A stretch of 64,000 bases of DNA from a virus. The notes beneath the pieces are model-generated. The model had not been told where the DNA came from. It did not search any database and saw nothing but the letters and a program-made list of their open reading frames with translations. The DNA is taken from the IMG/VR virus record IMGVR_UViG_3300031715_000003, positions 1 to 64,000 of that record; one strand, 5' to 3'. Within the stretch, counting starts at the first letter, position 1. The number at the start of each line of letters is the position of its first letter. This document shows, one piece after another, positions 11,751 through 63,029 of this stretch. The translations under genes were made by a program, and so were the position numbers.

Positions 11751-12286
11751 CGTTGCGCTCCGATCACACCTTGCCAGCATGAACTGGCCTGCAGGGGATA
11801 GCTTGCGGCCGGGTCCACCAGCCCAGCCAGGATTGCGGTGGGGTCGGGAGCCCGCCCTTGGATCTGGCTTGCCAGCGCCACAAGGCTTCCGGTGAGGACC
11901 ACGCCAGCCGTCTCCCACTTCGATTTGTTACGCTCCGCGATATTGATTACGCCAGAAGTCGCGGCTCCGGTAGCGGCTCCCGACAGTATGGGAGTTCCCC
12001 ATCCGAACCACTTGCGCCAGTCATCTGCCGCAGCGTGCTGCATCGCGGCCTTTACCGCTGGCGGGATCAGCGTCACGTATCCCGCGGAGAATGCCTGCCG
12101 ATACAGATCTCCCCCCGATTGCGTTGCCGGCGTAGTCCCCGCACACACCGTCACCGACAGGAGTTGCAGATGCTTCATTGGACGCCCGGTCGCCGTCTTG
12201 AGAACGTCGGCAGACTGCGGGGAGAACGTTGCTGGCAGAAGCTGCGCCGACAGTGGGAGCGCGGCGAAAATAAGGAACCATTTCAC
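11747..12286 (-). CDS. Secreted hypothetical protein
   Basis: GTG start (MKWFLIFAALPLSAQ), coupled to the upstream stop. Confidence 0.55.
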   Translation of the reverse strand: MKWFLIFAALPLSAQLLPATFSPQSADVLKTATGRPMKHLQLLSVTVCAGTTPATQSGGDLYRQAFSAGYVTLIPPAVKAAMQHAAADDWRKWFGWGTPILSGAATGAATSGVINIAERNKSKWETAGVVLTGSLVALASQIQGRAPDPTAILAGLVDPAASYPLQASSCWQGVIGAQR

Positions 12287-12948
12287 TTGGAAGGCCCTGC
12301 TCCAATTCGATACGGTGGCGGGATCCCGTGATCCACTTTCGTATACGGAATGTCCCCGCATAGTTTCCACCCGATGGTAGTTTTGCACCATTTCTGAGAA
12401 TCTGAGTGAACAACGAAGTTATCGATGAAACGATCATCCACCCACTCAGGCTCCATGTGCGGCTCTCCAAGCTCCAGATGGTAATCCCAGTGGCCCTGAA
12501 TTTCCTCTCCCCACTTTCCGACTAGCCTCACGGTGGATTGCTGTTCCAGCAAGAAGTGCCGCTTGCAGTAGAAGGTTCGAGCGAAGCTCATGTAGCCGTC
12601 GAAATTGGCTTCCCCTCCCACTGATCTCCATTCCGAGTCCTTCTGCTCTGGTGCGACGGTTTCACAATCGCGATAAACCTGAGAGCTTTCTTGAGGCAGA
12701 CCAAAATTTACGATCTCTCCAAACCACATGTCCCCGTACTCCGCGACGTATTTGAAGCCGTGGATATCGATCTTGCGCTCGAATTGCCCGCGTAATTCGA
12801 TCACGCCTTCGCGGCAGTGGAACCATTTCTCGACAGAATTCTCAACTACCCGTCGAGCCACTATCGTACAGTCGTGGTACTCAGCAGAGTATGAACCAGA
12901 GGTTTGCCCGACCAGCGGAAGCGCGAGGAGTGCGATGAGGAGCTTCAC
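12283..12948 (-). CDS. Secreted hypothetical protein
   Basis: Signal peptide MKLLIALLALPLVG; GTGA overlap. Confidence 0.6.
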   Translation of the reverse strand: MKLLIALLALPLVGQTSGSYSAEYHDCTIVARRVVENSVEKWFHCREGVIELRGQFERKIDIHGFKYVAEYGDMWFGEIVNFGLPQESSQVYRDCETVAPEQKDSEWRSVGGEANFDGYMSFARTFYCKRHFLLEQQSTVRLVGKWGEEIQGHWDYHLELGEPHMEPEWVDDRFIDNFVVHSDSQKWCKTTIGWKLCGDIPYTKVDHGIPPPYRIGAGPSK

Positions 12949-13454
12949 TCTGCTGATTCCTGTGCAGTGGCACGCTTGGTCTTGCCGTTCTTGGGGGAGT
13001 CTGTTTCGGGAAGTTCCATCTGTTCCTCAGCGTTGAACGTGATCTTTAGTTGTGCCTTGGAATCGGATGGCCCCACGGATTTGATCCACTCCCATACGGC
13101 AGGCATCGCTCCATCGTCCACGGTCGTCACGATGAAGGTGAGTTCCCGACGTTTGGTTTTGCCATCCTCCACATGGGCCTTATGTTTGAAGGCGTGGACT
13201 TTGGAGATGGGGATGTCGAAACGGTAGGGCTTCAGATCCTTCCCGTTTGGCTCGCACATCATGCTGATGCCCGCGAGACTCCCATCGAGCGACCCAGATC
13301 CGTCTCCCTCGCGCTCGAACACCCATCCGAAGGCTTCGCAAACGGGTTGCGTCCACGCAGAGGAGAAACTGATTTCCGCAGTTCTTTGGCCTGCGCTGTT
13401 GCAATAGAAGAGGCACTGCTCAATTGCAGCACCCCGAATCAAAATGCTCGACAT
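12945..13454 (-). CDS. Hypothetical protein
   Basis: GGGAGG SD; 169 aa; coupled to the next gene. Confidence 0.6.
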   Translation of the reverse strand: MSSILIRGAAIEQCLFYCNSAGQRTAEISFSSAWTQPVCEAFGWVFEREGDGSGSLDGSLAGISMMCEPNGKDLKPYRFDIPISKVHAFKHKAHVEDGKTKRRELTFIVTTVDDGAMPAVWEWIKSVGPSDSKAQLKITFNAEEQMELPETDSPKNGKTKRATAQESAE

Positions 13455-13570
13455 GAAACCTCCCTACCTTTTAAGTTTGTCTATTTCTCGCAGAACGAAG
13501 ACTATCCCGGTAATAATCAATATCGCCAGCGCAACAAACATGAGTCCGATATCGTCCGTCGTAGCGCACG

Positions 13571-13750
13571 TCATCCCCCATGCTCCTCTCGATGGCACGC
13601 GCCAGCGAATCCTGTGCACAGAACCGCAAGATTGGCGATCCGGTCGTCTCGCCCTTTAGAGCGGTGCTGAATGTGGTGGCCCTCCCCGCATCCCTGGAGG
13701 TCGCGCCCGCACTTTGCGCAGCGTGGGGAATTATATACTACCGTATACAT
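13571..13750 (-). CDS. Minimal HNH endonuclease (59 aa, not in the ORF track)
   Basis: MYTVVYNSPRCAKCGRDLQGCGEGHHIQHRSKGRDDRIANLAVLCTGFAGACHREEHGG* has CxxC, HH, N and C..CH..H. It overlaps the tnpB 3' end. Confidence 0.65.
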   Translation of the reverse strand: MYTVVYNSPRCAKCGRDLQGCGEGHHIQHRSKGRDDRIANLAVLCTGFAGACHREEHGG

Positions 13751-14841
13751 TCTGAAGAACCTTTCAGTCCCGCAAGGCTCTTCCCGAGCCTAAGAACATT
13801 GATCGATGCATTATGATCGCGATCCAAGTTCGTCCCGCATTCGCAAATATGGCGCCGCTCCTTCAGCGTCTTCCGCACATCTGCACCGCAGTTTGAACAG
13901 CGGATCGATGTGCCCCTGGAGTTAACTGGTATGGCCCATCGCCCGGCACTTTCAGCCTTGTACGATATTTGCCAAATCAGTTCTCCCCATGCGGCATCGA
14001 GGATGGATTTGGCAAGTTTGCCGTGCACCATCCTAGCGATGTTCAGTTTTTCAAAAGCGATCAGGTCGTAGTTGGACACCAACCACTTGCTGACATGATG
14101 GATAAAATTGCGTCTGGCGTCGGCCGCACGCTGGTGCGCACGACGTAATGCCTCTTTGGCGCGGACACGGTTGTTTGACCGCTTTTTCTTTAGCGCTAGA
14201 CGCCGATTTGCCGCCGCGATCTTAGCCTCATGCTTGCGCGTCCAGCGCGGATTATCTATCGAGCGTCCATCGGAAAGAGTCACGAAATTGATTAATCCGA
14301 CATCAATACCGACGGCGCTTGACACCACGACCTTTTCTGGTGCGGCCCCGATATCGCAGCACAGGCTGATTTGCCACCGTTCACCGCGGCGCTTAACTGT
14401 GGCCGTGCGCGGTGTGCCGATAATCAACTGGCTCGACTTGAATTTGAACCAGCCCAGATCTGGAATCCTAATTTTGTTGTCAAGTATCCGCACCTTGCCG
14501 AACAGGAATGAATTGTAACGATGTCTCGAACGGAATCGTGGAAACCCCGGATTTTCACCGCGCTTGCAGCGACGGAAGAAATTCTTAAAGGCTCGCTCTA
14601 GCCGACGTAGGGGCTCCCGCTGAATGTCCACTGCAATCCTGGCGAACTGTGAATCTTTGCGTAGTTCCGTAAGTTCGGCCTGTTGGTCGTAAAGTCCGAT
14701 GTGCTTTCGCTCTAGCTTCCATGCTTCCTTGCGTTCCTGGAGTGCTGCATTGTAGGTCTCCGCGCTATCGCGAAGGATGTCCTCGAAAGCAGCAAGTTGA
14801 GCTTGGTTCGGTCGGAGGCGAAGTGTGTACGTCCGGAACAT
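13738..14841 (-). CDS. tnpB: RNA-guided endonuclease TnpB (IS200/IS605 OrfB family)
   Basis: N-terminus YTLRLRPN, PGFPRFR, RuvC-I GIDVG, RuvC-II IAFEKL, zinc ribbon CSNCG..CECG and RuvC-III DRDHNAS. ATG at 14841. Confidence 0.92.
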   Translation of the reverse strand: MFRTYTLRLRPNQAQLAAFEDILRDSAETYNAALQERKEAWKLERKHIGLYDQQAELTELRKDSQFARIAVDIQREPLRRLERAFKNFFRRCKRGENPGFPRFRSRHRYNSFLFGKVRILDNKIRIPDLGWFKFKSSQLIIGTPRTATVKRRGERWQISLCCDIGAAPEKVVVSSAVGIDVGLINFVTLSDGRSIDNPRWTRKHEAKIAAANRRLALKKKRSNNRVRAKEALRRAHQRAADARRNFIHHVSKWLVSNYDLIAFEKLNIARMVHGKLAKSILDAAWGELIWQISYKAESAGRWAIPVNSRGTSIRCSNCGADVRKTLKERRHICECGTNLDRDHNASINVLRLGKSLAGLKGSSECIR

Positions 14842-14845
14842 GAAA

Positions 14846-15208
14846 CTAATCTCTACGCTCCTGGGTCGATTGGTAGCGGGCATAATGCTCCTCCGCTAAT
14901 TGCTTCATGTTGACCACGTATCGTTTCTCAAATGCTTTTCGTCCGGCGTCGTATTCGCGATGGTAGGCGCGTTCCAGGGGAACGCACGAGGAATCTGGTC
15001 CTTTGCTTCCCATCCCGTTGTTTTGCGTATGAGCGGGATCAATTATCGCTCGCCTCCAAAGCCCACTCCCGGAAACTATCCAAGTATCCCCCTTTATCCC
15101 GGATACGACGCATGGTTGCTCGCAGCACCATTGTCGATAACCGACGTCTCTCATCGGCCCGCGACGAGGTTTCGCGCGCTTCTGCGGAATCCGGCTGCGG
15201 ACCTTCAT
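14846..15208 (-). CDS. DUF968-like putative His-Me finger nuclease
   Basis: YRQW..QPCVVSG, DPAH, GMGSKGPD..VPL...HRE motif pattern. Confidence 0.6.
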   Translation of the reverse strand: MKVRSRIPQKRAKPRRGPMRDVGYRQWCCEQPCVVSGIKGDTWIVSGSGLWRRAIIDPAHTQNNGMGSKGPDSSCVPLERAYHREYDAGRKAFEKRYVVNMKQLAEEHYARYQSTQERRD

Positions 15209-33647: not shown

Positions 33648-33656
33648 CAGTTGTTT

Positions 33657-33726
33657 GAGCCTCCTATTGCTCACCCGAGGGGAGCACGGTCGCGGGTGTG
33701 CTCCCCTTCGGCGCGCATCAGGAAAC
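33657..33726 (-). repeat. SD-sequestering intergenic element, copy 4
   Basis: GTTTCCTGATGCGC-hairpin-GAGCAATAGGAGGCTC. Confidence 0.8.
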
Positions 33727-35567: not shown

Positions 35568-35828
35568 TCAAAGCTGAACCAGAACGCGGTTAACGTCGTT
35601 CTCGAACGTGTAGACTTGGTCGCCGTTCTCCAGACCACCTTTCATGAGCGGTCCAGCCCATCCGAACTTCCGGCAGAGCGCGATGGCGGCTCCATCGTGG
35701 GCTTTGTCGGCGCTGTCGAACTGGCTGACCTTGACGGTGACGCGGTTCTTGGGATGGCCGGTTGTGGCGGAAACCGTTGATGGTTTGGTCACGTCGGCGC
35801 CGTGGTATCGGGTAATGATTGCTTTCAT
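35568..35828 (-). CDS. Hypothetical early protein
   Basis: MKAIITRYHGA...; ATG follows the element. Confidence 0.65.
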   Translation of the reverse strand: MKAIITRYHGADVTKPSTVSATTGHPKNRVTVKVSQFDSADKAHDGAAIALCRKFGWAGPLMKGGLENGDQVYTFENDVNRVLVQL

Positions 35829-35835
35829 TTTGTGC

Positions 35836-35901
35836 GAGCCTCCTATTGCTCAGCCAGGGGAGAAGACCGAAAGCGTTCTCCCCTGAAGCGCACTAGGAAA
35901 C
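35836..35901 (-). repeat. SD-sequestering intergenic element, copy 1
   Basis: GTTTCCTAGTGCGC-hairpin-GAGCAATAGGAGGCTC. Confidence 0.8.
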
Positions 35902-36297
35902 CACAGGGTCGGAGTTGAAGGACCAGCGCAGCTCGGTCACTTTGCCACGGACAAAACAACGGCCGTCCTGATGGCCTGAACGAGTGGAGCCGCAATTCAG
36001 GCATTTTTCCAGTTGCCGATCTCCCGACATGGCTTCTTGAGCTTCCATAGTCAGAACCAAATGCGTCACTCCAGGCAGTGCGATATCGGCCATTGGGCAG
36101 AACACCGAATAGCTGGCGGCGAGTTTCGTCCACCCGTCCGTTACGCTAGCGGCATCGGTGTATTCCACAAATGCATCCAGCCCATCTAACCGGATTCGCA
36201 GTTTCACCTTAAATCCGTTCTGGTCCGGAAGAATACCGTGGCCTAGCAGCCGTGCGCGACGGCTTGTGCCTTGCTCCACAAATTCCCTCAAGTTCAT
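35893..36297 (-). CDS. First gene of the leftward (early) arm, hypothetical
   Basis: Follows the promoter and an SD-in-loop hairpin CAGGG-AAATAGGAG-CCCTG. Confidence 0.6.
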   Translation of the reverse strand: MNLREFVEQGTSRRARLLGHGILPDQNGFKVKLRIRLDGLDAFVEYTDAASVTDGWTKLAASYSVFCPMADIALPGVTHLVLTMEAQEAMSGDRQLEKCLNCGSTRSGHQDGRCFVRGKVTELRWSFNSDPVVS

Positions 36298-36325
36298 TGT
36301 TTCCAGGGCTCCTATTTCCCTGTGG

Positions 36326-36362
36326 AGATAAGATACCGCTTTTTTATCCGCAGTGTCAAGAT
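36326..36362 (-). promoter_or_regulatory. Early promoter copy 1
   Basis: TTGACA-18-TATCTT with spacer GCGGATAAAAAAGCG and an A/T-rich UP tract. Confidence 0.8.
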
Positions 36363-36429
36363 TTATTTTTGTTCTCCCCGCAAGTTTCAGAAAATGCTAC
36401 CATAAAACCGAAAGCGTTCTCCCCTTAGT

Positions 36430-37044
36430 ATGTTGGTAGCACCAGAAAACGGGCGCATTCGAGGCAAGCGAGACATCCTCAGCAACCCAGAGCGGAAATT
36501 CGCGGATGCCATTGCTCAGGGCAAATCGAAAGAGGACGCCCTCGCAGCCGCTGGCTACAGTTCCAAGTGCGGTAAATCCCAAGCCTGGAAACTCCTTTCG
36601 CGCAAGCGCGTGATCGACCGCATTGCGGAAACCAACATCGAAATTGCCCGCCAAGTGGCCGTCTACAGCGCGCGCTCCCTTAGCGAGATCCCAAACTTGG
36701 CTGAAGTCACCCTGAATAGAACCCGTATCGTGTCTTTCCTTGTGGTGGTGGCTCAGGAAGCAAGAAAAGCCGGGCAGTATGCATCAGCGATAACTGGAAT
36801 GGTTCAAGCGGCTAAAGTTTCTGGCGCTTATGTTGAGCGAACAGAGCAAGCTGTTGAGTTTCAACTGCTTGAGAAGGCAGCGGCGGGCAACATGAGCGAG
36901 TTGACGGATGATCAGGTGGAGCGGATGACGCGGGCGCTGGAAGTGATGGCGTGGGGCTCGGATAGAGCACGCATCGAAGCCGAAAGACGGAAACAAGGCA
37001 TCATAGAAGCCAGCGCGGAAGCCGTTGAAACGAAAGATAGTTAG
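36430..37044 (+). CDS. terS: Terminase small subunit
   Basis: LSNPERKFA...G.S..DA..AAGYS....QAWKLL...V..RI N-terminal HTH, and ELTDDQV in the C-terminus. Confidence 0.7.
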   Translation: MLVAPENGRIRGKRDILSNPERKFADAIAQGKSKEDALAAAGYSSKCGKSQAWKLLSRKRVIDRIAETNIEIARQVAVYSARSLSEIPNLAEVTLNRTRIVSFLVVVAQEARKAGQYASAITGMVQAAKVSGAYVERTEQAVEFQLLEKAAAGNMSELTDDQVERMTRALEVMAWGSDRARIEAERRKQGIIEASAEAVETKDS

Positions 37045-37455
37045 ATTTCCTACGAACAATTACCTTATTTCCTTGTATAATAGGCTGCATGAGAAGCCAT
37101 TTGTTACAAGAAACTCTGCCAGAGATCAAGAAGCGCGGACGCCCACAGCGTATTGTTCGATGCGACTGTGGCGACCGAATGCCCTCGTTCGAGTTCCAGC
37201 ACCACTATTCAGGCTGCGATGCGTTCTGGAAAAAGCACGGCGCCGTGGAGACGGATCAGGATATTTCGGTTCGTTGTTACGTGAAGCACGGAGTCAGCCT
37301 GATGAAGTGGTGCGAGGAGAACGTTGAAGGCTGGTCCAGCGCCTCATGGCAGGAGAAAGAGGAGGTTCTGGAAGCTGAGCACGCGCGGATCGATGAGATT
37401 CAGTTCTCGTTGTGAGCCGGCTTGGATCGCGCGGCGGGCCTGGCTTCCGGCTTCG

Positions 37456-37523
37456 GCCCCTCCCTTCCTTCCCGACCACCCCACCCCACAGTACCCTCGC
37501 CCCCCCCACCCCCCACCCCCCCC
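37456..37523. other. C-rich tract (G-quadruplex-capable on the - strand)
   Basis: Successive C runs of 3-8 nt in non-coding DNA after terS. Confidence 0.6.
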
Positions 37524-37604
37524 TTCGATTTAATTCACCGATCAGCACGAAGTTGATTCTGGAAAGAAGGCCACCGGCCTAAGAATCAACGATATAAAAT
37601 ATAG

Positions 37605-37634
37605 TTGACACCGTGCTCAGTGCCGATGTAAACT
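37605..37634 (+). promoter_or_regulatory. Rightward sigma70-like promoter
   Basis: TTGACA-18-TAAACT, with ATG 7 nt downstream (leaderless). Confidence 0.7.
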
Positions 37635-37641
37635 TAACGCA

Positions 37642-38205
37642 ATGGAACGGAAGAGATATTGGGCGCATGTGGATGGAGCGGGGCAAGCGGGTACGGAGTT
37701 GATCACTTCAGGGTGGGGCGAATGGATGCCGGAGGCTGGCGACATCTTCACGATCGATGGAGTCTATGGAGTGAATCCTGATGGCGAAAGCTGGACAGGA
37801 CGGCTCCAGTATTTTGCGATGCAGGAAAGTCCGAAGAAACTAGCCACTAATGGTAATGCGGTTTTGACCATCGCGCCCGCGATCATCCCAAGTGGGAAGT
37901 TCAGGACGGTAACGAACTCGCCGGCGAACGGGGCACGGATTCAACCGGTTGATCCTATACTCTTTGGAAGCGACCTCCCTAAGGGGAGAACGGTTTTGAA
38001 GACTAAGGAATTGAAGGAGTTAAGGAAAGCGCTGTCACAACAGCACGGGGCGATGGCCAAGATTGCTAGGTCGCTTGGGATCTCGAGGACGGCTGTATCG
38101 TTGGTGCTGAATGGGGTGAGCAAGAGCGAGAGGGTGTTGAAGGCTTGTAAGGCAGCGGTGAGGGGAGAACGCTTTGGAAACCAAGGTCCGCGGGTGGATA
38201 ATTAA
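37642..38205 (+). CDS. Coat-protein I-domain-like module fused to a Cro/XRE-like HTH
   Basis: The N-terminal half aligns with the coat segment AGQ.G...GD....GVY.VNP...TG.LQ.F...I.P.II..G...TVTNSPANGA. The C-terminal half reads MAKIARSLGISRTAVSLVLNG. Confidence 0.8.
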   Translation: MERKRYWAHVDGAGQAGTELITSGWGEWMPEAGDIFTIDGVYGVNPDGESWTGRLQYFAMQESPKKLATNGNAVLTIAPAIIPSGKFRTVTNSPANGARIQPVDPILFGSDLPKGRTVLKTKELKELRKALSQQHGAMAKIARSLGISRTAVSLVLNGVSKSERVLKACKAAVRGERFGNQGPRVDN

Positions 38206-38725
38206 GAACCGGTCGGATGGAACTGGATCGGCGAAGTTCAGTGAGTGCGAGCGCTATCGCTACACTCTGACCAGGAGTTTTGCGCCTGGGATAGTGATGC
38301 CGCGGCACGTGAACTTCATTATGCTGAACCCGTCGACCGCCGACCATAACCAGAACGATCCGACGGTGGAGCGGTGCGAGCGCCGGGCACGCGCTTGGAG
38401 ATTTGACGGGCTGACGGTGACGAATCTATTCGCGTGGAGGGCGACCGATCCGTCTGAACTACTCAAAGTGGCGGATCCCGTCGGGCCAGACAACGATTGG
38501 AATTTAGTGCACGAGGCCAAAATGGGAGCTGATTTAGTCGTATGCGGATGGGGCGGAAATAGCCGGTTCACACGCAACAGAGCCATCCATGTCGTTAGTC
38601 TCCTGTTGAATGCGGCCGTGCCGCTGACGTATTTGCGACTGTCGCAGAGGACTGGACAGCCTTGTCATCCTCTTTACTTGCCGTACTCCGAGTTGCCTAA
38701 AGTCTGGTGGGACGAGCGCGTCTAG
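38174..38725 (+). CDS. DUF1643 family protein
   Basis: AKFSECERYRYTLTR, FIMLNPSTAD..NDPTV.RC, NLFAWRATDP, CGWG, HPLY. Confidence 0.85.
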   Translation: METKVRGWIIKNRSDGTGSAKFSECERYRYTLTRSFAPGIVMPRHVNFIMLNPSTADHNQNDPTVERCERRARAWRFDGLTVTNLFAWRATDPSELLKVADPVGPDNDWNLVHEAKMGADLVVCGWGGNSRFTRNRAIHVVSLLLNAAVPLTYLRLSQRTGQPCHPLYLPYSELPKVWWDERV

Positions 38726-39245
38726 GGAGAACGGATTTGGCGAACAACCGGCTTCATTTCACTTTGCGGCTCATTGGCGCTATTATGGCGGGCGGCATCA
38801 CGGGAGTGGTGTTGGGCTGGCTGACCTATCGAAACTGAGGGGAGAACGATAGCGAAATGATCAAAAAAATGGAACAAGCGGACGGGCAGAGTTGCTGGAA
38901 TAAGGCTCATGAGGAAGAAATGGTTTTCGTGCTGCTCGAGCGCGATCTAGCCGCCCCCTATGCGATACGGGAGTGGGCCAAGAAGCGGATAGAACTTGGC
39001 AAGAACACCACGGACGATCATCAGATCAAAGAGGCGTTGGGCGCCGCGCTCTTCATGGAGAGACGAGATAAATCCGCAGAACTTTTGCCGAACGAGGCAA
39101 AACGACATACTTGGGAGTATGTCCATATGTCCGACGGACGGCGCGTCAAAAGATGCAGCCTCTGCTGGTGCGCCTACGAGTTTGGATACGACTTGCCCTG
39201 TACAGCAAAGCCGAAAGAGCTGCTTAGGGAGAATGAACCAGGCTG

Positions 39246-39275
39246 TTGACGTACTCCCCCAAAGAGGCGCATAAT
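39246..39275 (+). promoter_or_regulatory. Possible promoter overlapped by the dispersed motif
   Basis: TTGACG-18-CATAAT, with GTACTCCCC at 39251. Confidence 0.5.
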
Positions 39276-40209
39276 CCAATCATCACGGGCCATGACGGAA
39301 GAAGAAAAGCGCGCGCTTATTGCTGAGTTTCTTAAAGCGCTCTCCCCTGATGAGCGTGCACGTGTAGTGTGCGGGGCCAGCGGGGAGAACGCTTCTGAAC
39401 CCGTTAAAGAAATCCAGAAAATTCCGGATCCGCGCTACCAATATAGACCACAGATCCCGGCTGACTACACGGTGCCGCCCAAGCCGGCAGGCTGGCTGAA
39501 ATGAAATGCTGCGACTGCGGTGCCATCAACGTTCCGGGCAACCATCTCGGCACAGTACAGCGTTGCCGCCGCTGTCTCGACCGGCTACTGATCCGGACGC
39601 TTCGGCCCCACGTTCTTAAATCTCCGCTGCTGCGAAAATGGAACCAGGAGATTGAGGCAGTTCTGCCAAAACGGCTCTCCCGTGAAGAAAAGGAGGGGAG
39701 AGCGATATTGATCATGAAGGCTAGCAATGGAACCTGAACAAAGACTCCCTGCGATAAACGGGACCAATGCTGGAGAATGGAACCACTCTGAGGTAGAGTA
39801 CAATGCCTGCCAGAGCACCAATGGACCGATGAAGGATTGCCCGTCGTGCGGTGGGACTGGTAAGATTTCAGAAAGCGCACTACCATGAAAAGGCTCTTCT
39901 CCATCACCGGATGGGAGTACAAGTGGATCTTTGAAATTCGGCGTGGACCCTTCCGATCGTTTCACCTCATGATCAGACGTGAACTAAAGAGGTGGCTATG
40001 ACGGTACTCCTCTCACGTCCTTATCGTCCCGCCATGGCTTGTGAAGCGTGTTGCTTCGGGGGGAGTACGCACGCGGTCTGGTGCAGCAAAGCCCAAAGTT
40101 TCATGGAGGCGTGGGATGCTGTTACGTGGCTCCCTGGATCGCCACGTGCCGCCAGAGAAGCCGCTATGCACCCGGCGTCTCACTCTCCACCGAAAGTGAA
40201 CTCCCCCCA

Positions 40210-41280: not shown

Positions 41281-41328
41281 GGCTAAATGGTTCAGTGATT
41301 CCGATAAAATGCAAGCAGGGAGAACACC

Positions 41329-44092: not shown

Positions 44093-44362
44093 TCTGGCAA
44101 AACTGGGTTGGTCTTGGAATTGAGGCGGTGTGCGTAATGCTATTCCTCTGGAAAGAGGAAGATGGCGGGAAGCGAATTTTTTCCCTACTGCTGAACATCA
44201 TTATTGCCGCTATGCTTTTGTGGAGATGAAGCCAATGGACATACCGGAACGTTGTAAGTTATGCGGCTGCAAACTAACTTTGGTGCAGGAGCATGCGGTA
44301 GATTTCGAATGCGGATCCAGATTCTACCGGGAAACGGGAAACTGGTACCGTGGTACTTCCTC

Positions 44363-47133: not shown

Positions 47134-47134
47134 T

Positions 47135-49337: not shown

Positions 49338-50906
49338 GTGGCAGCCCTCAACCAAGAATCCGTAGAGAAGAGCGCGAGCGCATTCCAAGCGGAACTAGCG
49401 CGGCGCCGGGAATCTCGCCCTGAGAACCTCACCCGCTTCAAGGAAGACCCACTGGGCTTTATCCGGTGGGATTTCCCATGGGGGAGACCTGGGCCGCTCG
49501 AACGGTTCGAAGGCCCCGACGTATGGCAGGTGGACTTCCTCACGGAACTGGGGGAACTCATTCGGAAGCGCGAGTTCGACGGAGTCAACTCTGTTGCGCC
49601 CATCAGGATGACGCGCACTGCTGGCAAGGGCGTGGGGAAGTCGGTAATGGCCGCCTTCCTCACCAGTTTCCTTTTGAAGTGTTGGAAACTCTCCAAGGGG
49701 ACCGTCACGGCCAACACCTACGTCCAACTTGAAACCAAGACGTGGGCGACCATCAGCCAGTGGCTCAGAATGTCGCGATCGTCCTCCCCCTTTGAAATTC
49801 GCGACTCCGGCGTCTACCACAGAGTGGAGCGCAAGGCGTGGTCTTGCACTCCCCAGACATCGGACGAAAAGAACAAGGAAGCGTTCGCCGGCCAGCACGC
49901 CGCCACCTCAGTACAGTACTACATTTTTGATGAGTCCTCGGCCATAGCCGATACCATCTTCAAGGAAGCCGAGCGCGGACTTGTGGATGGTATGCCCATG
50001 ATATTCGTGTTTGGGAACCCGACCAAATCCACCGGTACGTTCTTCCGTATCAATTTCGGAGACGAGAAGGAACGATGGAACCACGGCATCATCGATTCCC
50101 GAACCTGTAAGATTCCCAACAAACAGGAACTCGAAGACACCATCAGGCTGGCCCCGGGCGGGGAGGACGATGACGACGTCCGCGTCTATATCCGCGGACT
50201 TCCGCCATTGTCGAACCCATCGATGCAGGTCATCGATCCTCAGCGAGTCTACGACGCGCAGAAACGGACTCCCGAAGTCCTGGATGACGAACCGCTAGTG
50301 GCGGGCGTCGACCTGTCGCGCGGCGGCGGCGACCCGGCCGTCGTCCGCTTCCGCCGTGGCAATGACGCGCGTAGCATTGCGCCTCGAAAGCTTTCTCCCC
50401 AGGAGACGCGCGATTCCATGCAGGTGGTAGGGTACTTGTCTGATTTGGCGAAGCATTCCTTTGGGGGGAGGAAGGTGGCGGCGTTCTTTATTGACGGGGG
50501 CTCCATGGGCGGCCCCATCATTGATCGTCTGCACCAGCTCGGGCTGAATCAATTCATCGAAGTGCAGTTCGGAGGCGGAGCCCCGCAGCCGGATCGCTAC
50601 GCAAACATGCGGGCCTGGATGTGGTTTCAATTGGCTGAGGCGCTGGGGAGTCGGCTCGCGATTGACAAGGACCCCGTTCTGGAATTGGACTTGACGTCAG
50701 TGGCACCAGGCAGGCGCGACAAAAAGAACCGATTTGTTTTGGAATCGAAGGAATCTATGAAAGCGCGGGGATTGGCCTCCCCCAATGACGGTGATGCGCT
50801 GGCCCTCACTTACGCGCGGACGGTAGGACCGCAGCGCCCAGAGCGCATTCCACCGAAAAGGAACTACAACATCAAGCCCGAGGCTGGTTCCTGGATGGGG
50901 CTATAA
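49338..50906 (+). CDS. terL: Terminase large subunit
   Basis: AGKGVGKS (Walker A), YYIFDES (Walker B), FGNPT, and nuclease motifs AGVDLSRGG, FIDGG and SPNDGDALALT. Confidence 0.92.
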   Translation: MAALNQESVEKSASAFQAELARRRESRPENLTRFKEDPLGFIRWDFPWGRPGPLERFEGPDVWQVDFLTELGELIRKREFDGVNSVAPIRMTRTAGKGVGKSVMAAFLTSFLLKCWKLSKGTVTANTYVQLETKTWATISQWLRMSRSSSPFEIRDSGVYHRVERKAWSCTPQTSDEKNKEAFAGQHAATSVQYYIFDESSAIADTIFKEAERGLVDGMPMIFVFGNPTKSTGTFFRINFGDEKERWNHGIIDSRTCKIPNKQELEDTIRLAPGGEDDDDVRVYIRGLPPLSNPSMQVIDPQRVYDAQKRTPEVLDDEPLVAGVDLSRGGGDPAVVRFRRGNDARSIAPRKLSPQETRDSMQVVGYLSDLAKHSFGGRKVAAFFIDGGSMGGPIIDRLHQLGLNQFIEVQFGGGAPQPDRYANMRAWMWFQLAEALGSRLAIDKDPVLELDLTSVAPGRRDKKNRFVLESKESMKARGLASPNDGDALALTYARTVGPQRPERIPPKRNYNIKPEAGSWMGL

Positions 50907-50948
50907 TGATGGACGGGTTAAGCATTAGAGCTTCCTATCAATCGACTT

Positions 50949-51106
50949 GGGGGGAGTACGGCGACAGACGTTCTCCCCCCGTTTTTCCTTGCGTTGCGAT
51001 GCTATGCGCCGACGAGATTTGCGGAGACGAGATACGCCAGGCTCCGACGAGCGCCGACATGCCGTGACTTCCTTACGACTATACCAAGATTATGGTATCT
51101 TCTGAA
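50949..51106 (-). ncRNA. Candidate ncRNA: promoter, 5-nt periodic tract and hairpin (copy B)
   Basis: TTCAGA-17-TATAGT on the - strand; G at every 5th + strand base from 50991 to 51066; same 15-bp end as copy A; GGGGGGAG..CTCCCCCC stem. Confidence 0.5.
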
Positions 51107-52323: not shown

Positions 52324-52620
52324 ATGATAACGCGAAGAGGACTGATTGCGGCAATCGCGGCGGTGTTTCTGCCGAGCCGCAAGCGTACTCCCCCAAATAC
52401 GCTGTACTGGCGAAAGCCTATCCTGGTCCCCGTTACCCACGGCGACTGGCCATGGCTACAGCCGGTTTCAGAGCCAGAACTGGAGACTGAATCTGTCTGC
52501 CTTCTCACAAACCGCGCCATCGTCGGAGAAATGCTCGATGTCCTTCATCGGGACATAGTGATAGCCAAAAAGGTAAATCGCAGGTACGAACAGAGATTAG
52601 GAGCATCATGGCCAAGTTAA
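52324..52620 (+). CDS. Tat-like leader fused to a coat N-arm-like segment
   Basis: MITRRGLIAAIAA...LLTNRAIVGEMLDVLHRDIVIAKKVNRRYE compared with coat FLTIGMVTYEMLMVLHNLVVAAKKANRNYE. Confidence 0.7.
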   Translation: MITRRGLIAAIAAVFLPSRKRTPPNTLYWRKPILVPVTHGDWPWLQPVSEPELETESVCLLTNRAIVGEMLDVLHRDIVIAKKVNRRYEQRLGASWPS

Positions 52621-53945: not shown

Positions 53946-54976
53946 CACCAGCGAACCAACTGCAAGGAATCCCGGAAGGCGTGGAGGTCATCGACTACTT
54001 GCCAGCCAGCTCCGATGATTTCGAACTCCTCCGCTTCTTCGATGACCCCATCATCATCAAGGGAGGGCGCCCGCACGCTTCGATCTCGATCCGGGTTAAG
54101 CCAGCGCAAGGCTATTGCTTCATCGAGGGGAAACTCCTCCAGCAGGCCGATATCAGGGCGCTCGGCACGACGACGCTGCAAACATATTCGGCCACGAAGG
54201 TTCTCCCTCCGACCGTCATTATGGCAACCATCAAGTTTTCGGTGGAGAACGCTATCGATCAGGCAGCGGTGGAGCAGGCGCTGGAAGGGTTGCGCCAAGT
54301 GCGGGGATTCAATTCGTTGGAGAAGGCATGAATATGGCAGAACTAAATCCGATTACTGACGTAGAACGTTATATCGACGCCAAACTTCAAGAAGGATTGA
54401 CGGCGCTGGAAATCAAGATCAAGATTGCGATCGCCGTGGAGGATGCGCGCATCGCGCTAGCCCGTGCCCTTCAACTCGATGATGATCCGAAGAACAAAGC
54501 CAACTACAGCGCGGCACTGACGGCTCTGGGGGAATAGTGGACTTCGAGCGATATCTCCTTAAAGCCCTCGGTGGTGCCGATGATGGATTGCTCTCCCTGA
54601 GGGTGGAACCGCTGGAAGACGGATCTGGCCACTACGTTTACGTGGACCCACTGGGCGATAAGGAAGTCTTTATGCTGAAAGGCAACGAGCTGGTCCCATT
54701 CGGATTTTTCGATCCCGCCGAAAGACCAAAAGCGTTCTCCCCCGATGAGTCACCGCTTCAAACGTCCTAAGCAGTTCCTCAATCAGGGAACTCCCCTGGC
54801 GAGACTGCGGAAGCACGTAGAGCAGATCCAGACTCAGGAGCAGTTCGACGCCTTCCTGGAAAAGCTCAGACCTGATATTCGTGCCGCCGGACTCCCCATG
54901 ATCGAATCCTGGCTAAAGTTTGCTCCTCGAAACCTTGCTACCAAGGCCAACGCATCACGCGCTGCCGAGTTAGCCG

Positions 54977-55213
54977 TTAGCGAGGGGGAGTACGCTGTAG
55001 AAATTGAGACCGGGCCTTTATTCTCCTAAGGCGGCCCACCACGGCAAACAATCGCCCTAGATTGGTATGCTTGTGTCCGATGTGCCAGCCTCCGCACTCC
55101 TCGCATTCGTAAGGAGTCATCCCGCCGTACCCCTTTTTGGTCATAGCGCGGCAAGCGTTCGATGCGGTTTCCCGATGCCGGTACCGAACCTTTCCCGTGG
55201 CTTCGCACGTCAT
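54977..55213 (-). CDS. Small zinc-finger protein, antisense to the late arm
   Basis: C..TGKVRY...A......PYECEECGGWHIG. Confidence 0.55.
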   Translation of the reverse strand: MTCEATGKVRYRHRETASNACRAMTKKGYGGMTPYECEECGGWHIGHKHTNLGRLFAVVGRLRRIKARSQFLQRTPPR

Positions 55214-55303: not shown

Positions 55304-55407
55304 GTGAATCAGCGGGGACTTCCCCGCCAATAAGAGAAGAACACCGCACCTGACCCGTCGTGATGACGGTGATGGTCGACCCCGGAAGTTTCGGGGGGAG
55401 TTCATAG

Positions 55408-58956: not shown

Positions 58957-60207
58957 GTGGCTAATTCATTTCTCACCATCGGCATGGTCACATACGAAAT
59001 GCTGATGGTGCTTCACAACCTTGTGGTGGCGGCCAAGAAAGCGAACCGCAACTACGAGAAACAATTCGCGCGAGTGGGCGCCAAGATCGGACAACAGGTC
59101 CAGATCCGCAAGCCCCCGCTCTACACCGTCACGGATGGTCCTACGTTTGTCGCGCAGGATTACGCCGAAACCAGCGTCCCCTTGACGCTCAACAAGCACA
59201 AACAGGTGGGCGTTGAGTTCCTCAATGATGACCTCGTGCTCAGCATGGACGATTTCCGTGGTAGATTCCTCGAGCCCGCCATCGTTCCCCTTGCGAACAT
59301 TGTCGACACCGACATCATGTCGCTCTACACCATGGCTTGGGAATTCACCGGCACCCCCGGCGTCACCCCGGCCCAAGACCTGCCGTTCCTAGACGCCAAA
59401 ACCCTGATAACGGCCAATGCCGCCGGCGGAAGAATGTGGCCCATGATCGTCAGTTTGACCACTGACGCTCGCCTGTCCAGCGGCCTGGCTGGACGCTTCA
59501 ACCCCCAAAAGGACATCTCGGGTCTGTACCTTGAAGGTTCGATGGGGCCCGCTCTGGGATGGGACTTCTACAAGACTCAGAACGTCCAGATCTTCACCAC
59601 CGGAGCATGGTCGGCCAGCGTCCCTGCGACCGGCATCACGGTGAATCTCGCCGGACAAACCGGTTCCACCATCAACGTGACTGGGGCGACCGCTGGTGTC
59701 AACAACATCGGTCTCCTCGGCGATATCGTCCAGTTCGCTGGTGTCTACAAGGTCAACCCCGTAACGTACCTCAACACCGGGTTGCTCCAAAACTTCGTCC
59801 TCACGGCCAACGTAAATTCGGACGGCGGTGGCAACATCGCGCTCCCCATCAGCCCCCCGATCATCATCGTGGGCAAGGGCCAGACCGTAACGAACTCCCC
59901 GGCCAATGGCGCGCAGGTGCTGGTGTGGGGGAATCAGAACGTCGCGCAGGTGGCCAGCGTCACCTCCGCTCAGTGCATGGGATGGGCCTCGGAAGCCGTC
60001 ACCATGGCGATGGCCGATCTCAAGGTCTTCGGTGAAGGCGAGGGCGTAAAGTGCACCCGCATGGCCGACGACGATCTCGGGATGAGCGTGCTGTATACAC
60101 GCGGAGTGGACATTCGCGAATTCTCCGAGATTTCGCGCATGGACATCCTCTACGGCATGACCATGCCTCGTCCGGAACACGCCGTCAGGGTGGCGGCGAT
60201 GTCGTAA
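58957..60207 (+). CDS. Major capsid protein, P22 gp5-like
   Basis: MANSFLT, KIGQQVQIRKP, DLVLSMDDF..RFLEPA..LAN.VD, I-domain GVYKVNP and RMDILYG....RPE.A.R. Confidence 0.93.
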   Translation: MANSFLTIGMVTYEMLMVLHNLVVAAKKANRNYEKQFARVGAKIGQQVQIRKPPLYTVTDGPTFVAQDYAETSVPLTLNKHKQVGVEFLNDDLVLSMDDFRGRFLEPAIVPLANIVDTDIMSLYTMAWEFTGTPGVTPAQDLPFLDAKTLITANAAGGRMWPMIVSLTTDARLSSGLAGRFNPQKDISGLYLEGSMGPALGWDFYKTQNVQIFTTGAWSASVPATGITVNLAGQTGSTINVTGATAGVNNIGLLGDIVQFAGVYKVNPVTYLNTGLLQNFVLTANVNSDGGGNIALPISPPIIIVGKGQTVTNSPANGAQVLVWGNQNVAQVASVTSAQCMGWASEAVTMAMADLKVFGEGEGVKCTRMADDDLGMSVLYTRGVDIREFSEISRMDILYGMTMPRPEHAVRVAAMS

Positions 60208-61110: not shown

Positions 61111-61169
61111 CACACAAGGGGACAGGGGGAAGACGCTTTCGAGCGTTCTCCCCCTGAAGGGCCAAATAA

Positions 61170-61604: not shown

Positions 61605-61617
61605 GAGGAGAACGTTC

Positions 61618-61893
61618 ATGAAAACAGGCAAGACGGCCCAGGATTATCGGGAGACGGGCTGGAAGAAGCAGCCCAAGCCGCCCGAAAAGAGGCTGCCAGA
61701 TCCCGGGAGCGAATTCCCCAAGCATGTCGTGTGCTTCGACGGAGCGAAGCGGACGGTTAACTCCGCGGAGGAGGAAGCACAGTGTACCAGAGCTGCGGAG
61801 GTTGAACCACTGCCAGCGGAAGAGAAGAAAGAGGAGTCGGCGGCCGCGCCGGAGCCACCCAAGGAGGAAACTCCGACGGAGCATGCGGCCTAG
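61618..61893 (+). CDS. Small head-module protein (E[FY]PK paralogue 1)
   Basis: EFPKHV...TVNSAEEE. Confidence 0.6.
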   Translation: MKTGKTAQDYRETGWKKQPKPPEKRLPDPGSEFPKHVVCFDGAKRTVNSAEEEAQCTRAAEVEPLPAEEKKEESAAAPEPPKEETPTEHAA

Positions 61894-61905
61894 CTGTTTC
61901 TGGGT

Positions 61906-62274
61906 ATGGCCGAGGAACTTCGTCCGCTGACATACGCGGAGCGCAAGCGCGAAGAGCGACGAGAGAAATGGGAGTTTGCTTTCGGCAAGGAACGGACAAT
62001 GCCATTAAGGGAAAATGCCACGCCACAGGAAGTCCATGAATACCCCAAGTGGGTTACGGACCGCCAGACTGGACTCCGCATCATCGTCCACAGCCGCGAG
62101 GAGGAGGAGAGGCGCGCGGAGGCTCCTTCTCCTTTTCCTCCCTCAAATGAGGCGCCAAAACAGGAAGCGGCCAAAACCGAACTCCCCCAGAAGAAGCGCC
62201 GGGGAGCACCGTTCCCGTTCCGCACCAATGCTGGATATGAAGAAATGAAACGAGCGCAGGACGCGGCCCAGTGA
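61906..62274 (+). CDS. Small head-module protein (E[FY]PK paralogue 2)
   Basis: EYPKWV...IVHSREEE. Confidence 0.55.
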   Translation: MAEELRPLTYAERKREERREKWEFAFGKERTMPLRENATPQEVHEYPKWVTDRQTGLRIIVHSREEEERRAEAPSPFPPSNEAPKQEAAKTELPQKKRRGAPFPFRTNAGYEEMKRAQDAAQ

Positions 62275-63029
62275 GCATCACGTTCATACAGCTAGCGTCC
62301 GATGCCTTGAGCGATATCAAGCAACTCGGTATCGGCCAAAGCCCCAGTCCGGAGCAAATTACGCAGGCGTTAAATTACGCCAACCGGATGCTCGGTAAGT
62401 GGAGCACGCAGCGGCTGTTCCTCTACACCGTTGCCAAGTTACCGTTCGCCGCGACAGCCAACGTCCAGGACTACACCATCGGGCCGTCCGGTGCTACCTT
62501 TACCGCTGTGCGACCGACATTCGTGGAAGCCGCCCAGGTGACGCCACCGGGGAGTTCCCTCTACCTTCCGCTGAGCATCCTGGACATAACCAAATGGGGA
62601 GCCATCAGGGATAAGGGCGCTACGTGTAGCGCGTCAGGCGTTCCACAGGACGTCTGGATTGAGTACGCCTATCCAAACCTCGGATTCCATCTGTGGACCA
62701 TTCCGTCCAACGCCTGCACCATCTACCTGTCGGCATGGCAACCCCTGCCACAATTCGTAACGGCCTTTGACGTTTTGAGCTTTCCGCTTGGGTATGAGGA
62801 AGCCATACAGAAAAATCTTGCCGTAGAATTAAGTCCGGCGTATGACATGCCCGTGGACCCTACTCTTGCGGCCCTAGCGATGGACGGAATGGCGAAAATA
62901 CAAGCCGTCAACCAGCAGAGCCTCGGTGGTGCGCTAGGCGATAGTCAACTCCTCACGGCCCCGAATCTTGCGAATCCAAATCCCACGGCGACAGCGGCCC
63001 CGCCGCCGGGCTCCCCCCAGAGGCAATAG
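62271..63029 (+). CDS. Head-tail adaptor (P22 gp4-like), paralogue 1
   Basis: AL...GQSPSPE...AL...NRML..W, YTIGPSG, FPLGYEEAI..NLAVELSPAY. Confidence 0.7.
   Translation: MSITFIQLASDALSDIKQLGIGQSPSPEQITQALNYANRMLGKWSTQRLFLYTVAKLPFAATANVQDYTIGPSGATFTAVRPTFVEAAQVTPPGSSLYLPLSILDITKWGAIRDKGATCSASGVPQDVWIEYAYPNLGFHLWTIPSNACTIYLSAWQPLPQFVTAFDVLSFPLGYEEAIQKNLAVELSPAYDMPVDPTLAALAMDGMAKIQAVNQQSLGGALGDSQLLTAPNLANPNPTATAAPPPGSPQRQ

Follow-up and report, generated by a model that had tools for sequence, protein, structure and literature searches.

A dense, orientation-blind 17-bp word dispersed through a phage genome and absent from its relatives

Composition and distribution of the word

The window analyzed here, 64,000 nt of the 94,224-bp genome of an uncultured phage, holds a field of a short dispersed word that extends from position 12219 to 62557 and contains 79 exact copies of the 9-mers GTTCTCCCC, GTGCTCCCC, GTACTCCCC or GAACTCCCC (41 in the written orientation, 38 reverse-complemented), together with nearly all of the 137 matches that the word's matrix returned for the window at a threshold of ≥12 bits. 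Exact 9-mers begin at 12219, the last being at 62549, and none occurs in 1–12218, in agreement with an earlier note, made from the letters alone, that had seen no strict copy in the first 12 kb. The refined matrix gave a 17-bp asymmetric consensus, GGGGAG-W-A-C-G-c-T-n-n-y-G-R (also written GGGGAG-WWCG-nT-nnn-GR), with three conserved blocks at matrix positions 0–5, 8–11 and 15–16 that span ~1.5 helical turns. Across the whole genome there are 171 matrix sites, or one per 0.55 kb, versus ~6 in Markov-3 simulations, so that the enrichment is above that estimated in the earlier note (about 73 copies, with about 3 expected). Relative to an order-3 Markov expectation for both strands of the whole genome, GGGGAGAAC was found 42 times versus 2.0, GGGGAGTTC 30 times versus 2.2 and the 10-mer GGGGAGAACG 34 times versus 0.6, and k-mers from the word core are the top over-represented k-mers genome-wide at each k from 6 to 10. 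The observation of a dispersed, over-represented word is thus confirmed. An extended form, AGCGTTCTCCCC, occurs 13 times; 15 coordinates had been listed for this extension, of which 11 carry it exactly and the other four do not. The top-scoring word in the genome is GGGGAGTACGCTTGCGG (52377..52393, − strand, 24.1 bits).

Word density forms a plateau of 2.8–3.0 per kb across the non-structural DNA (12–55 kb) instead of the peak at 30–40 kb that had been described, and beyond the window the word is sparser but persists as far as ~88.9 kb of the 94.2-kb genome. Outside this phage, such density and saturation are so far known only for the DNA-uptake tags of bacteria. The proposal that the word is genome-wide holds for most of the genome, with the exemption of a compositionally foreign, word-poor block of 18 kb that runs from 88 kb across the record ends to 12 kb (1..12000 in the window) and contains tail-fibre/tailspike genes and a leftward gene set. 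This block has three sites, carries the word at two of its 23 usable positions and has a tetranucleotide correlation of 0.59 versus 0.89–0.95. The word is a property of long-resident phage DNA and is missing from imported DNA.

Copies at promoters, gene starts and hairpins

Consensus-grade copies cluster at 35800..39500, where six of the 15 sites scoring ≥21 bits are located and ≥20 bits is reached by half of the sites there, versus 4–17% elsewhere (permutation P 0.007–0.03, for a window picked after seeing the data). Within this cluster is a small-terminase-like gene (terS, 36430..37044, + strand), the first gene in a rightward operon and 12 kb away from terL. Its 204-aa product, gp36430, was identified through profile matches to phrog_641 (E 2.4e-8) and phrog_51 (E 1.2e-6), both over residues 18–78, a match to the solved Pam5 small terminase (E 1.4e-4, residues 17–139) and Atlas Terminase_2 clusters (0.95). 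It is nearly an orphan, with one relative only, and no TerS relatives were found in IMG/VR. There are no word copies in the terS ORF. A perfect-consensus word, GGGGAGAACGCTTTCGG (36408..36424, − strand, 23.3 bits), lies between the rightward promoter's extended −10 (TGCTACCAT, 36395–36403) and the terS ATG, starting 5 nt past the former and stopping 5 nt short of the latter; judged from the −10, the predicted terS transcript, which is without a Shine-Dalgarno sequence, would have this word at ~−2 to +15. A weaker word with the core GGGGAGAAC (36363..36379, − strand, 15.1 bits) is flanked by the −35 of a leftward promoter (TTGACA, − strand, 36354–36359) and the rightward promoter's −35 position. 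A further word core on the − strand (39251..39259, GTACTCCCC on the + strand) overlaps the −35/spacer region of TTGACG-18-CATAAT, a sigma-70-like promoter at 39246–39275. These positions bear out the promoter copies, at 36371 and 39251, of the earlier note. Also in the cluster is a coat-fragment/HTH gene (37642..38205, + strand) whose product, gp37642, has profile matches to an HTH family (phrog_925, E 3.9e-5) and a major head family (phrog_283, E 2.6e-4). This gene shares a 67-nt repeat with the coat gene and holds two of the strongest words, at 37983 (22.7 bits) and 38162 (22.5 bits).

Inverted pairs of the word, which had been proposed to form stems, do fold, at −14 to −28 kcal/mol. A pair at 50951/50970 (50949..50980, + strand) forms a hairpin of −22.9 kcal/mol with a U-run behind it; this is the terminator that follows terL and, read on the opposite strand, it closes a guide-like RNA gene. 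The pair at 33679/33698 (33679..33706, − strand) lies in an early leader and folds into a hairpin of −28 kcal/mol, and a long palindrome composed of a degenerate and a full word (61123..61156, + strand, −25 kcal/mol) is located between two structural genes. The second perfect-consensus word (35867..35883, − strand) is the 5' arm of a −20.7 kcal/mol hairpin that belongs to a repeated early-leader element.

Several copies adjoin start codons. Two adjacent ORFs had been reported to start with MNSP, and both do indeed begin ATGAACTCCCCC. The word at 54726..54742 (− strand) ends 2 nt upstream of the ATG of gene 54745–55029, and antisense copies also abut start codons at 29135 and 36424. A sense copy at 55395..55403 (+ strand) is placed 7 nt before the portal ATG (55408), and is among eight of the 86 sense copies that are positioned 5–12 nt upstream of called start codons and that may double as ribosome-binding sites. 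Identity as a Shine-Dalgarno sequence was rejected on the basis that just these eight are suitably placed and that 85 copies are antisense. The earlier view that the sites are neither Shine-Dalgarno nor polar therefore stands in the near-equal orientations, with the qualification that those eight may have a second role.

Selection on the DNA and absence from other sequences

Relative to transcription, 86 matrix sites are sense and 85 antisense, and GGGGAGNNC is divided 80:80, consistent with the balance of orientation, independent of transcription direction, that had been claimed. Both orientations were present on the + strand in nearly every site-holding 4-kb bin of 12–88 kb, and a polarity switch was absent. 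Approximately two-thirds of the sites are intragenic and copies in genes occupy every reading frame. A codon-preserving null had been suggested as a check, and the enrichment persists under it: the called CDS contain 65 sites versus 9.0 ± 2.7 when the proteins were kept and synonymous codons shuffled (z ~21), and versus 4.5 ± 2.2 when codon order was shuffled. Of the positions at which the protein is compatible with the word, 54–56% are filled in the non-structural DNA and 40% in the structural genes. The ~171 copies have near-Poisson spacing. In the genes shared with the relative L012, 16 of 17 sites were alignable, all 16 without gaps, and at 15 of these the amino acid differs; by this comparison, the word sites arose through point substitution in aligned codons, usually with an amino-acid change. 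A miniature mobile element or REP-like repeat was rejected based on the repeat unit of ≤24 nt, the intragenic location of two-thirds of the copies and the 16 gap-free alignments. The earlier proposal of a DNA-level code under selection is upheld by the survival of the enrichment under codon nulls, the indifference to orientation, the saturation of >50% and the substitutions that changed protein. The word is a nucleotide-level, orientation-blind, all-frame signal under strong "more is better" selection.

The word is also private to its lineage, being absent from relatives and from all other sequences searched. Relatives L012–L015, whose capsid proteins are 52–65% identical, had no word excess (7 sites versus 7.1 under the null, and 67 in the equivalent region here), the remainder of the L012 contig had none either, and the relatives examined show no comparable word of their own. 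The consensus 17-mer was identified in 11 IMG/VR contigs and 66 JGI metagenome contigs, all of them isolated chance matches. Among 401 evenly drawn Pseudomonadota genomes, the maximum was 14 per Mb versus 360 here, and in five follow-up genomes the extended word was present at 0.5–1 per Mb versus 212 per Mb here. An equally dense host signal, which had been put forward as grounds for refutation, was thus not encountered, as no searched genome or contig had an elevated word density.

Candidate readers and competing explanations

The reading that we tentatively favor, which in our estimation falls somewhat short of an even chance, is that of a reader encoded by the phage and a label of self. The word would be a recognition site in duplex DNA for a sequence-specific protein of this phage lineage, and would act as a private label on the phage's own long-resident DNA, with every added copy bringing benefit. 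We infer that the reader is a protein, given that three conserved blocks would suit a monomer with two DNA-contacting modules or neighboring subunits of a ring, and also that it is phage-encoded.

One of the closest known likenesses is to the DNA-uptake words of bacteria, the DUS of the Neisseriaceae and the USS of the Pasteurellaceae. These have a core of ~9–10 bp and a weaker one-sided extension, occur at least at about one copy per kb in equal orientations, lie in genes in all frames with favored tripeptides, form terminators as inverted pairs and are missing from imported DNA. The phage word shares the core and extension, the dense copies in genes, the equal orientations, the use of all frames with favored tripeptides, the inverted pairs as terminators and the nearly word-free imported block. 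In contrast, DUS and USS belong to bacterial chromosomes and are read by a competence receptor, whereas the carrier here is a phage, for which no word-bearing host was present among the sequences searched, and whose virion-delivered genome has no known need of uptake.

With regard to the identity of a phage-encoded reader, among the proteins proposed in the earlier note the 32154 product is a Lar-type restriction-alleviation protein, the 48926 product has an ortholog in a relative without the word, and the I-domain/HTH protein continues to be a candidate. gp37642 is a second candidate reader, and gp36430, which the earlier note had not named, is better placed, with a perfect word directly before its gene. 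Judged by position and family knowledge, gp36430 is the best-placed candidate of all, and packaging or self labeling is the leading candidate function given the clustering of consensus-grade copies around an orphan terS gene. Near-orphan status is common to both this TerS and the word. The N-terminal HTH of TerS proteins reads asymmetric elements of ~16–22 bp in or beside terS, as in P22 pac, the lambda R sites and SPP1 pacL/pacR, an arrangement resembled here by the perfect word 5 nt ahead of terS and the strongest words around it. Unlike pac and cosB, which to our knowledge are confined to one region in each phage, there are 171 dispersed sites here. Pac-like sites in the chromosome of the P22 host are accidental (PMC11260489), and a literature search found no precedent for a genome-wide pac word. 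If TerS were the reader, the word would be a pac-like packaging label in ~170 copies, such that terminase would engage phage DNA anywhere along its length and in both directions while ignoring host or satellite DNA. Headful packaging, when it draws on a concatemer, is tolerant of any start point. A pac word spread genome-wide would be a novelty, and this specific version, which draws on position and family knowledge, is one we regard as unlikely.

A somewhat unlikely alternative to a phage-encoded reader is that a host helicase-nuclease of the RecBCD/AddAB type reads the word as a Chi-like switch from degradation to repair (or, less plausibly, that another host machine reads it as an uptake-type tag), and that the phage enriched it because it is without its own recombinase and nuclease inhibitor. 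The "more is better" saturation fits a signal with a limited recognition probability per site, the G-rich core resembles known Chi sequences, and a search of 67 non-structural proteins detected neither a recombinase nor a Gam/Abc-type inhibitor nor a DNA polymerase. The even split of orientations could fit a headful genome that is circularly permuted and may end at any point. There is also a published parallel, in that the Rec-less lambdoid phages LLS and MD8, and P1, have accumulated Chi far above chance while lacking recombination genes, and their recently imported segments are without Chi (PMC12315714), as the foreign block here is spared the word. However, Chi in those phages reaches at most one per 1.9 kb, crowds toward one end and is strongly oriented (20:3 and 32:0; PMC12315714), whereas the word is ~3.5 times as dense, evenly spread and divided 86:85 with no regional polarity, unlike Chi, which is expected to be biased with respect to the direction of replication or to a DNA end. 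Chi is moreover a contiguous, one-oriented host octamer (5–8 nt among known Chi sequences) and not a gapped 17-bp span, and the word has no known host counterpart, with an excess in none of the sampled genomes or metagenome contigs and nothing comparable in the relatives.

Quite unlikely, in our view, is a stoperator-like system, in which a phage repressor would bind the word as an operator at promoters and as a roadblock inside transcription units, shutting down or timing gene expression. The site is asymmetric and operator-sized, and copies are found at early promoters, where those at 36363–36379 and 36408–36424 cover the terS promoter at its −35 and its start and adjoin the leftward early promoter, and the copy at 39251 covers the −35 of the 39246 promoter; the word is also 2-fold enriched in non-coding DNA and at ≤25 nt from the start or stop of a gene. 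At ~3 sites per kb, though, such promoter overlaps are weakly above chance. The repressor of Cluster A mycobacteriophages (L5 gp71/TipsytheTRex) is a phage-encoded monomer with two DNA-binding modules whose dispersed, asymmetric sites number slightly over 20, most of them in short gaps between genes and all strictly co-oriented with transcription, and a reversed site loses function (PMC9283540). In this phage, co-orientation is lacking (86:85), there are ~7 times more sites than in L5, two-thirds of them are intragenic and regulation hardly explains saturation of >50%. Cluster A phages are temperate, whereas no lysogeny module was detected here, as neither an integrase nor an immunity repressor was found in a profile search of the 67 proteins of 8–55 kb, in which the absence of hits is weak evidence.

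We consider it very unlikely that the word is instead a strand-specific site, at which an enzyme of the phage or the host would act on the word-carrying strand by nicking it, priming on it or initiating recombination-dependent replication there. Neighboring sites do alternate in orientation above chance (runs z 3.1, or 2.0 once hairpin pairs were collapsed), gaps per strand are slightly more regular than random, and the slight excess of opposite-orientation neighbors is a hint that the two strands may count separately, and this would favor a strand-reading process over a duplex binder. Among the proteins of the phage are a DnaB helicase, a primosomal protein and a fusion of an HNH endonuclease with DUF5131, but there is no polymerase, and nick-associated words occur in T5-, phiKMV- and tf-like phages. 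Conversely, known nick motifs number tens at most, ~85 nicks per strand with 18 opposed pairs ≤60 bp apart would fragment the chromosome, and the alternation fades with distance and is explicable by avoidance of close direct repeats.

Highly improbable is a non-adaptive drive (biased repair or conversion) or a role in RNA as a Shine-Dalgarno, anti-Shine-Dalgarno or hairpin element: the likeness of GGGGAG to a Shine-Dalgarno sequence, the eight start-proximal sense copies and the several stable hairpins or terminators are countered by equal orientations, by clear ribosome-binding sites of this phage that are AGGAGG/AAGGAG, by neighbor pairs ≤60 bp apart (23) at about the level we estimate for random placement, and by a repeat unit of ≤24 nt with no indels at sites and no visible copied template. 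A described RNA family was rejected, there being no Rfam matches at the gathering threshold in the window. The target rule of VIPR requires 3-nt periodic xNN units over 27–48 bp (bioRxiv 10.64898/2026.04.26.720920), and identity as a VIPR target or part of the conserved vrRNA tail was rejected, given that the word lacks a 3-nt period and contains six invariant bases in a row. The arrays of the main VIPR locus contain no word hairpins, and word-built terminators end just two genes, both for orphan RNAs.

Word counts, matrix and selection on the DNA

The dispersed 9-mers reported in the earlier note were confirmed, and its counts all held or were surpassed: there were 79 exact copies of its four 9-mers in the window, these were as balanced in orientation as it had claimed (41 versus 38), and the region from 1 to 12 kb was free of strict copies, the first being at 12219. 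Based on an order-3 Markov model, k-mers of this motif were the most over-represented of the genome at each length from 6 to 10, and GGGGAGAACG occurred in 34 copies versus 0.6 expected. When the GGGGAG sites were aligned, an extension was apparent on one side only, and an iteratively refined matrix gave the consensus GGGGAG-W-A-C-G-c-T-n-n-y-G-R, with about 16-17 bits across 17 bp (referred to here as the word). At a threshold of at least 12 bits this matrix identified 171 sites in the genome, 137 of them in the window, compared to about 6 in Markov-3 simulations trained on this same genome.

The core inference of the earlier note, that the motif is a DNA-level code under selection, was supported by codon shuffles, orientation and saturation. 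In the codon-preserving shuffle that it had proposed, the strict 9-mer was found 65 times in called genes versus 9.0 +/- 2.7 when synonymous codons were shuffled and proteins kept, and versus 4.5 +/- 2.2 when codon order was shuffled. Sites were divided 86 to 85 relative to the direction of transcription and occupied all three frames in both orientations. Among protein-compatible positions, defined as those where the encoded protein permits the word via synonymous codons alone, 56% carried it at 12-36 kb, 54% at 36-55 kb and 40% in the structural genes. Saturation above 50% means that every added copy still paid, and it argues for local sampling of the DNA (marking, scanning or loading) over a few regulatory operators.

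Genes common to this phage and L012, its syntenic outgroup, contained 17 sites, of which 16 were in gap-free aligned codons and one had no aligned L012 codons. At 15 of the 16 aligned sites at least one amino acid differed, for example GKYA to GEYG in the portal protein. From the gap-free codons and the amino acid differences, we infer that the word arose by point substitution, at a cost to the proteins, and not by insertion. The longest repeat unit was about 24 nt; a unit of at most this length, together with the lack of indels relative to L012, ruled out a mobile mini-element. Shine-Dalgarno sites, already rejected in the earlier note, were ruled out by the 86:85 split, with only 8 sense copies lying 5-12 nt upstream of start codons. 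Those eight may also serve in ribosome binding; where ribosome-binding sites are clear in this phage, they read AGGAGG. Other sequences that resemble the word are FtsK KOPS GGGNAGGG and SpoIIIE SRS GAGAAGGG, both of which need the polarity that is absent here, 6-mers of the BREX/Type IIL type with A at position 5, which a phage should avoid and not enrich, and the 16S rRNA helix-27 stretch GGGGAGUACG.

Genome layout and distribution of the word

The window covers the initial 64 kb of one 94,224-bp contig, an IMG/VR virus record with a CheckV completeness of 98%. This tailed phage has a P22-type portal, coat and large terminase. Its portal protein has only about 32% identity to those of P22-like phages, and megablast against cultured phages gave no match. 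Genes are directed rightward from 0.2 to 8.4 kb, leftward from 8.6 to 36.3 kb, and rightward again over the remainder of the contig (36.4 kb onward). The leftward block encodes DnaB, an HNH/DUF5131 protein, a primosomal protein, TnpB and Tad4. In the 67 proteins encoded at 8-55 kb we detected neither a DNA polymerase or methyltransferase nor a recombinase or integrase, and no tRNAs were found in the 64-kb window. The TnpB of this early region (13738-14883, minus strand) is full-length with OrfB_IS605 and Cas12f-like TNB domains, no TnpA was seen with it, and its best plasmid match, searched as a lead to the host, had only 41% identity. Two anti-defence proteins were identified, a Tad4 Thoeris inhibitor (31298-31939, minus strand; E 2e-31) and a Lar-type restriction-alleviation protein (32157-32636, minus strand; E 1e-8). 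The 215-aa product of a gene at 44261-44908 (plus strand) contains a GroES (Cpn10) domain (residues 58-104) and is a possible phage co-chaperonin.

Throughout the non-structural DNA, on both sides of the divergent promoters, sites occurred at a uniform density of 2.8-3.0 per kb. The conserved structural genes had 1.4 sites per kb, and a contiguous 18-kb block, which starts at 88 kb and continues past the record ends to 12 kb, had 0.16. In that block, only 2 of 23 usable positions were filled, and its tetranucleotide correlation with the rest of the genome was 0.59, compared to 0.89-0.95 for other pieces of equal size (word masked). We read this block, which carries the tail fibres and neighbouring genes, as a recent import, which makes the word a feature of DNA that has long been resident in the genome. 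Two very large genes also lie in the block, at 182-7664 (plus strand). The first encodes 1448 aa, and the second encodes about 1000 aa that include a beta-helix and an Ig-like domain; their products are probably host-recognition proteins that were exchanged recently.

Two thirds of sites were inside genes, but there was an enrichment of about 2-fold in uncalled DNA and close to gene ends (within 25 nt). Even spacing was ruled out, as the distribution was near Poisson (CV 0.95). Neighbours were of opposite orientation more often than expected by chance, at 78% for distances of up to 60 bp, 66% at 61-200 bp and 53% beyond 500 bp, which fits an avoidance of close direct repeats together with the use of inverted pairs as hairpins. 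Consistent with the earlier report of inverted pairs forming stems, their predicted folds ranged from -14 to -28 kcal/mol, and the hairpin of the pair after terL is followed by a U-run. A leader of about 30-60 nt (TGAGCAATAGGAGGCTC...) is present in four copies before early genes at 33651-35860 (minus strand), three of which are preceded by a word-containing hairpin. In two orphan guide-like RNA genes, 41100-41320 (plus strand) and 50930-51100 (minus strand), pentamer arrays end in ...GCAACGCAAGGAAA followed by a terminator hairpin built from the word. Word hairpins are absent from the arrays at the main VIPR locus (80.5-82.6 kb). A known RNA family was ruled out for the word, as the window gave no Rfam match. 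Published VIPR targets have a 3-nt period over 27-48 bp (bioRxiv 10.64898/2026.04.26.720920). The word has no such period and is lacking from the main VIPR arrays, and it was thereby ruled out as a VIPR target or part of a vrRNA.

Relatives, databases and bacterial genomes

For the capsid protein, over 1,700 relatives were identified; the top one had 69% identity, and many were encoded on 77-97-kb contigs. Four IMG/VR members of the clade (L012-L015; capsids 52-65% identical) were examined and none had an excess of the word. In L012 there were 7 matrix hits versus 7.1 expected and versus 67 in the equivalent region of this phage, with zero hits in the remaining non-structural part of the contig. 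The strongest 9-mer of L012 had a z of 8.7, versus 28.6 in this phage, with no other L012 word near such a level, and an apparent echo in L012, ACGCTTTCG (5 versus 0.24), was gone under the full matrix. Scanning for the consensus 17-mer identified 11 IMG/VR and 66 JGI metagenome contigs, each with a single hit and background density around it. Across 401 evenly drawn Pseudomonadota genomes, which sample about 1% of species-level genomes, the highest density of the 10-mer core was 14 per Mb, versus 360 per Mb here; one of these genomes, G388, is unpublished and nothing rests on it. A mild excess of the 10-mer in five sampled genomes was not the word, since the extended word was present at 0.5-1 per Mb in them versus 212 here. 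A literature search on the word returned only primers. As far as these relatives, contigs and sampled genomes go, the word looks private to this lineage.

Other words differed among the relatives. CGATCG was nearly absent from L012 (0 versus 20.9 expected), L013 (2 versus 12.3) and L014 (0 versus 3.5), a pattern suggestive of PvuI-type restriction in their hosts, and L015 was enriched for the cyanobacterial HIP1 palindrome GCGATCGC (12 versus 2.5). This phage had no CGATCG avoidance and merely a mild HIP1 excess (24 versus 8.7), and the HIP1/cyanobacterial lead from L015 did not extend to it or to the other relatives.

Hyper-abundant genomic words occur in a few bacterial groups (uptake sequences, Chi, HIP1), and to our knowledge those in phages are only host Chi or a few dozen repressor sites. 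Among known dispersed recognition words this one is remarkable in being phage-private, orientation-blind and more saturated than any phage example found. Here, a virus has its own, apparently private, word on over half of the protein-permitted positions of its non-structural DNA, with no likeness in the relatives examined. Such a word implies that each copy brings a strong benefit, through a process that has yet to be described for phages; the options include self-labelling for packaging, protection, and discrimination between phage DNA and that of the host or satellites. The system is tractable, with a defined 17-bp word, 171 natural sites, the imported 18-kb block as an internal negative control, and two candidate genes for the reader (the protein that recognises the word) adjoining the best sites.

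Candidate readers and rival explanations

The matrix is asymmetric, with three conserved blocks over about 1.5 helical turns, a shape that would suit a protein with two DNA-contacting modules or neighbouring subunits of a ring. Among the few annotated candidates, the product of the small-terminase-like gene at 36430-37044 (plus strand) stands out as a candidate reader. Over its N-terminal HTH, this protein matched phrog_641 (2.4e-8) and phrog_51 (1.2e-6), it aligned to a solved small terminase through the oligomerisation core (1.4e-4), and its nearest Atlas clusters were Terminase_2. Only one relative was found among 5.8 billion proteins (82% identical, on a 1.2-kb contig), with none in IMG/VR and no ortholog on the L012 contig. 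The gene heads the rightward operon and is the only recognisable small-terminase gene; it lies 12 kb upstream of terL (49338-50906), beside which there is no such gene. Dozens of small unannotated genes separate the two, another 4.5 kb of small genes lies between terL and the portal gene, and the P22-type late operon looks to have been enlarged through insertions. A perfect-consensus word (36408-36424) separates the extended -10 (36395-36403) of the promoter from the ATG at 36430. A weaker word lies over the -35 position of the same promoter, and another perfect copy is 541 bp to the left of the first. Consensus-grade words were concentrated at 35.8-39.5 kb, which has 6 of the 15 sites of at least 21 bits (permutation P 0.007-0.03, for a window chosen post hoc).

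Small terminases use their HTH domains to read asymmetric pac/cosB elements of about 16-22 bp, located within terS or adjacent to it, and any start point along a concatemer is acceptable for headful packaging. Given these two properties, a genome-wide pac-like label is mechanistically possible, although unprecedented and unproven. We speculate, while considering it rather unlikely, that the packaging signal has become a genome-wide private label, with the orphan small terminase reading the word and the ~170 copies engaging terminase anywhere and in either direction. Under this proposal, word-labelled phage DNA would win out over host DNA and over satellites that hijack packaging. Such an arms race would explain the runaway saturation, and it fits with the phage carrying a satellite-silencing VIPR system. 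If terminase is the reader, the view of packaging specificity and of phage-satellite competition would change, and the word would provide a portable "package me" tag.

A Chi-like word of the host would account for the per-copy benefit, the missing recombination genes and the word-free import, all of which have counterparts in published Chi-rich phages (PMC12315714). However, Chi in those phages is nearly all in one orientation, at no more than 1 per 1.9 kb, and is the contiguous octamer of the host (PMC12315714), whereas the word is gapped, spans 17 bp, has no polarity, is 3.5 times as dense as the published Chi maximum, and had no host counterpart in the sampled genomes and contigs. The copies at promoters and the asymmetry of the site fit a stoperator-like repressor network, but stoperators function in a single orientation and number a little over 20 sites (PMC9283540). 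The slight alternation of strand between neighbouring words would be consistent with nicking or priming sites, but the genome would then fragment at the 18 opposed pairs within 60 bp.

In addition to the small-terminase-like protein, the second candidate reader is the product of a coat-fragment/HTH gene (37642-38205) within the 35.8-39.5 kb cluster of words. A 67-nt stretch of the coat gene (59846-59912) recurs in this early HTH gene (37868-37934) with 70% identity, which confirms the duplication of a coat fragment and its fusion to a DNA-binding domain. Within the repeat, the coat copy has the core of the word (GAACTCCCC) and the HTH paralog has GAACTCGCC at the corresponding position.
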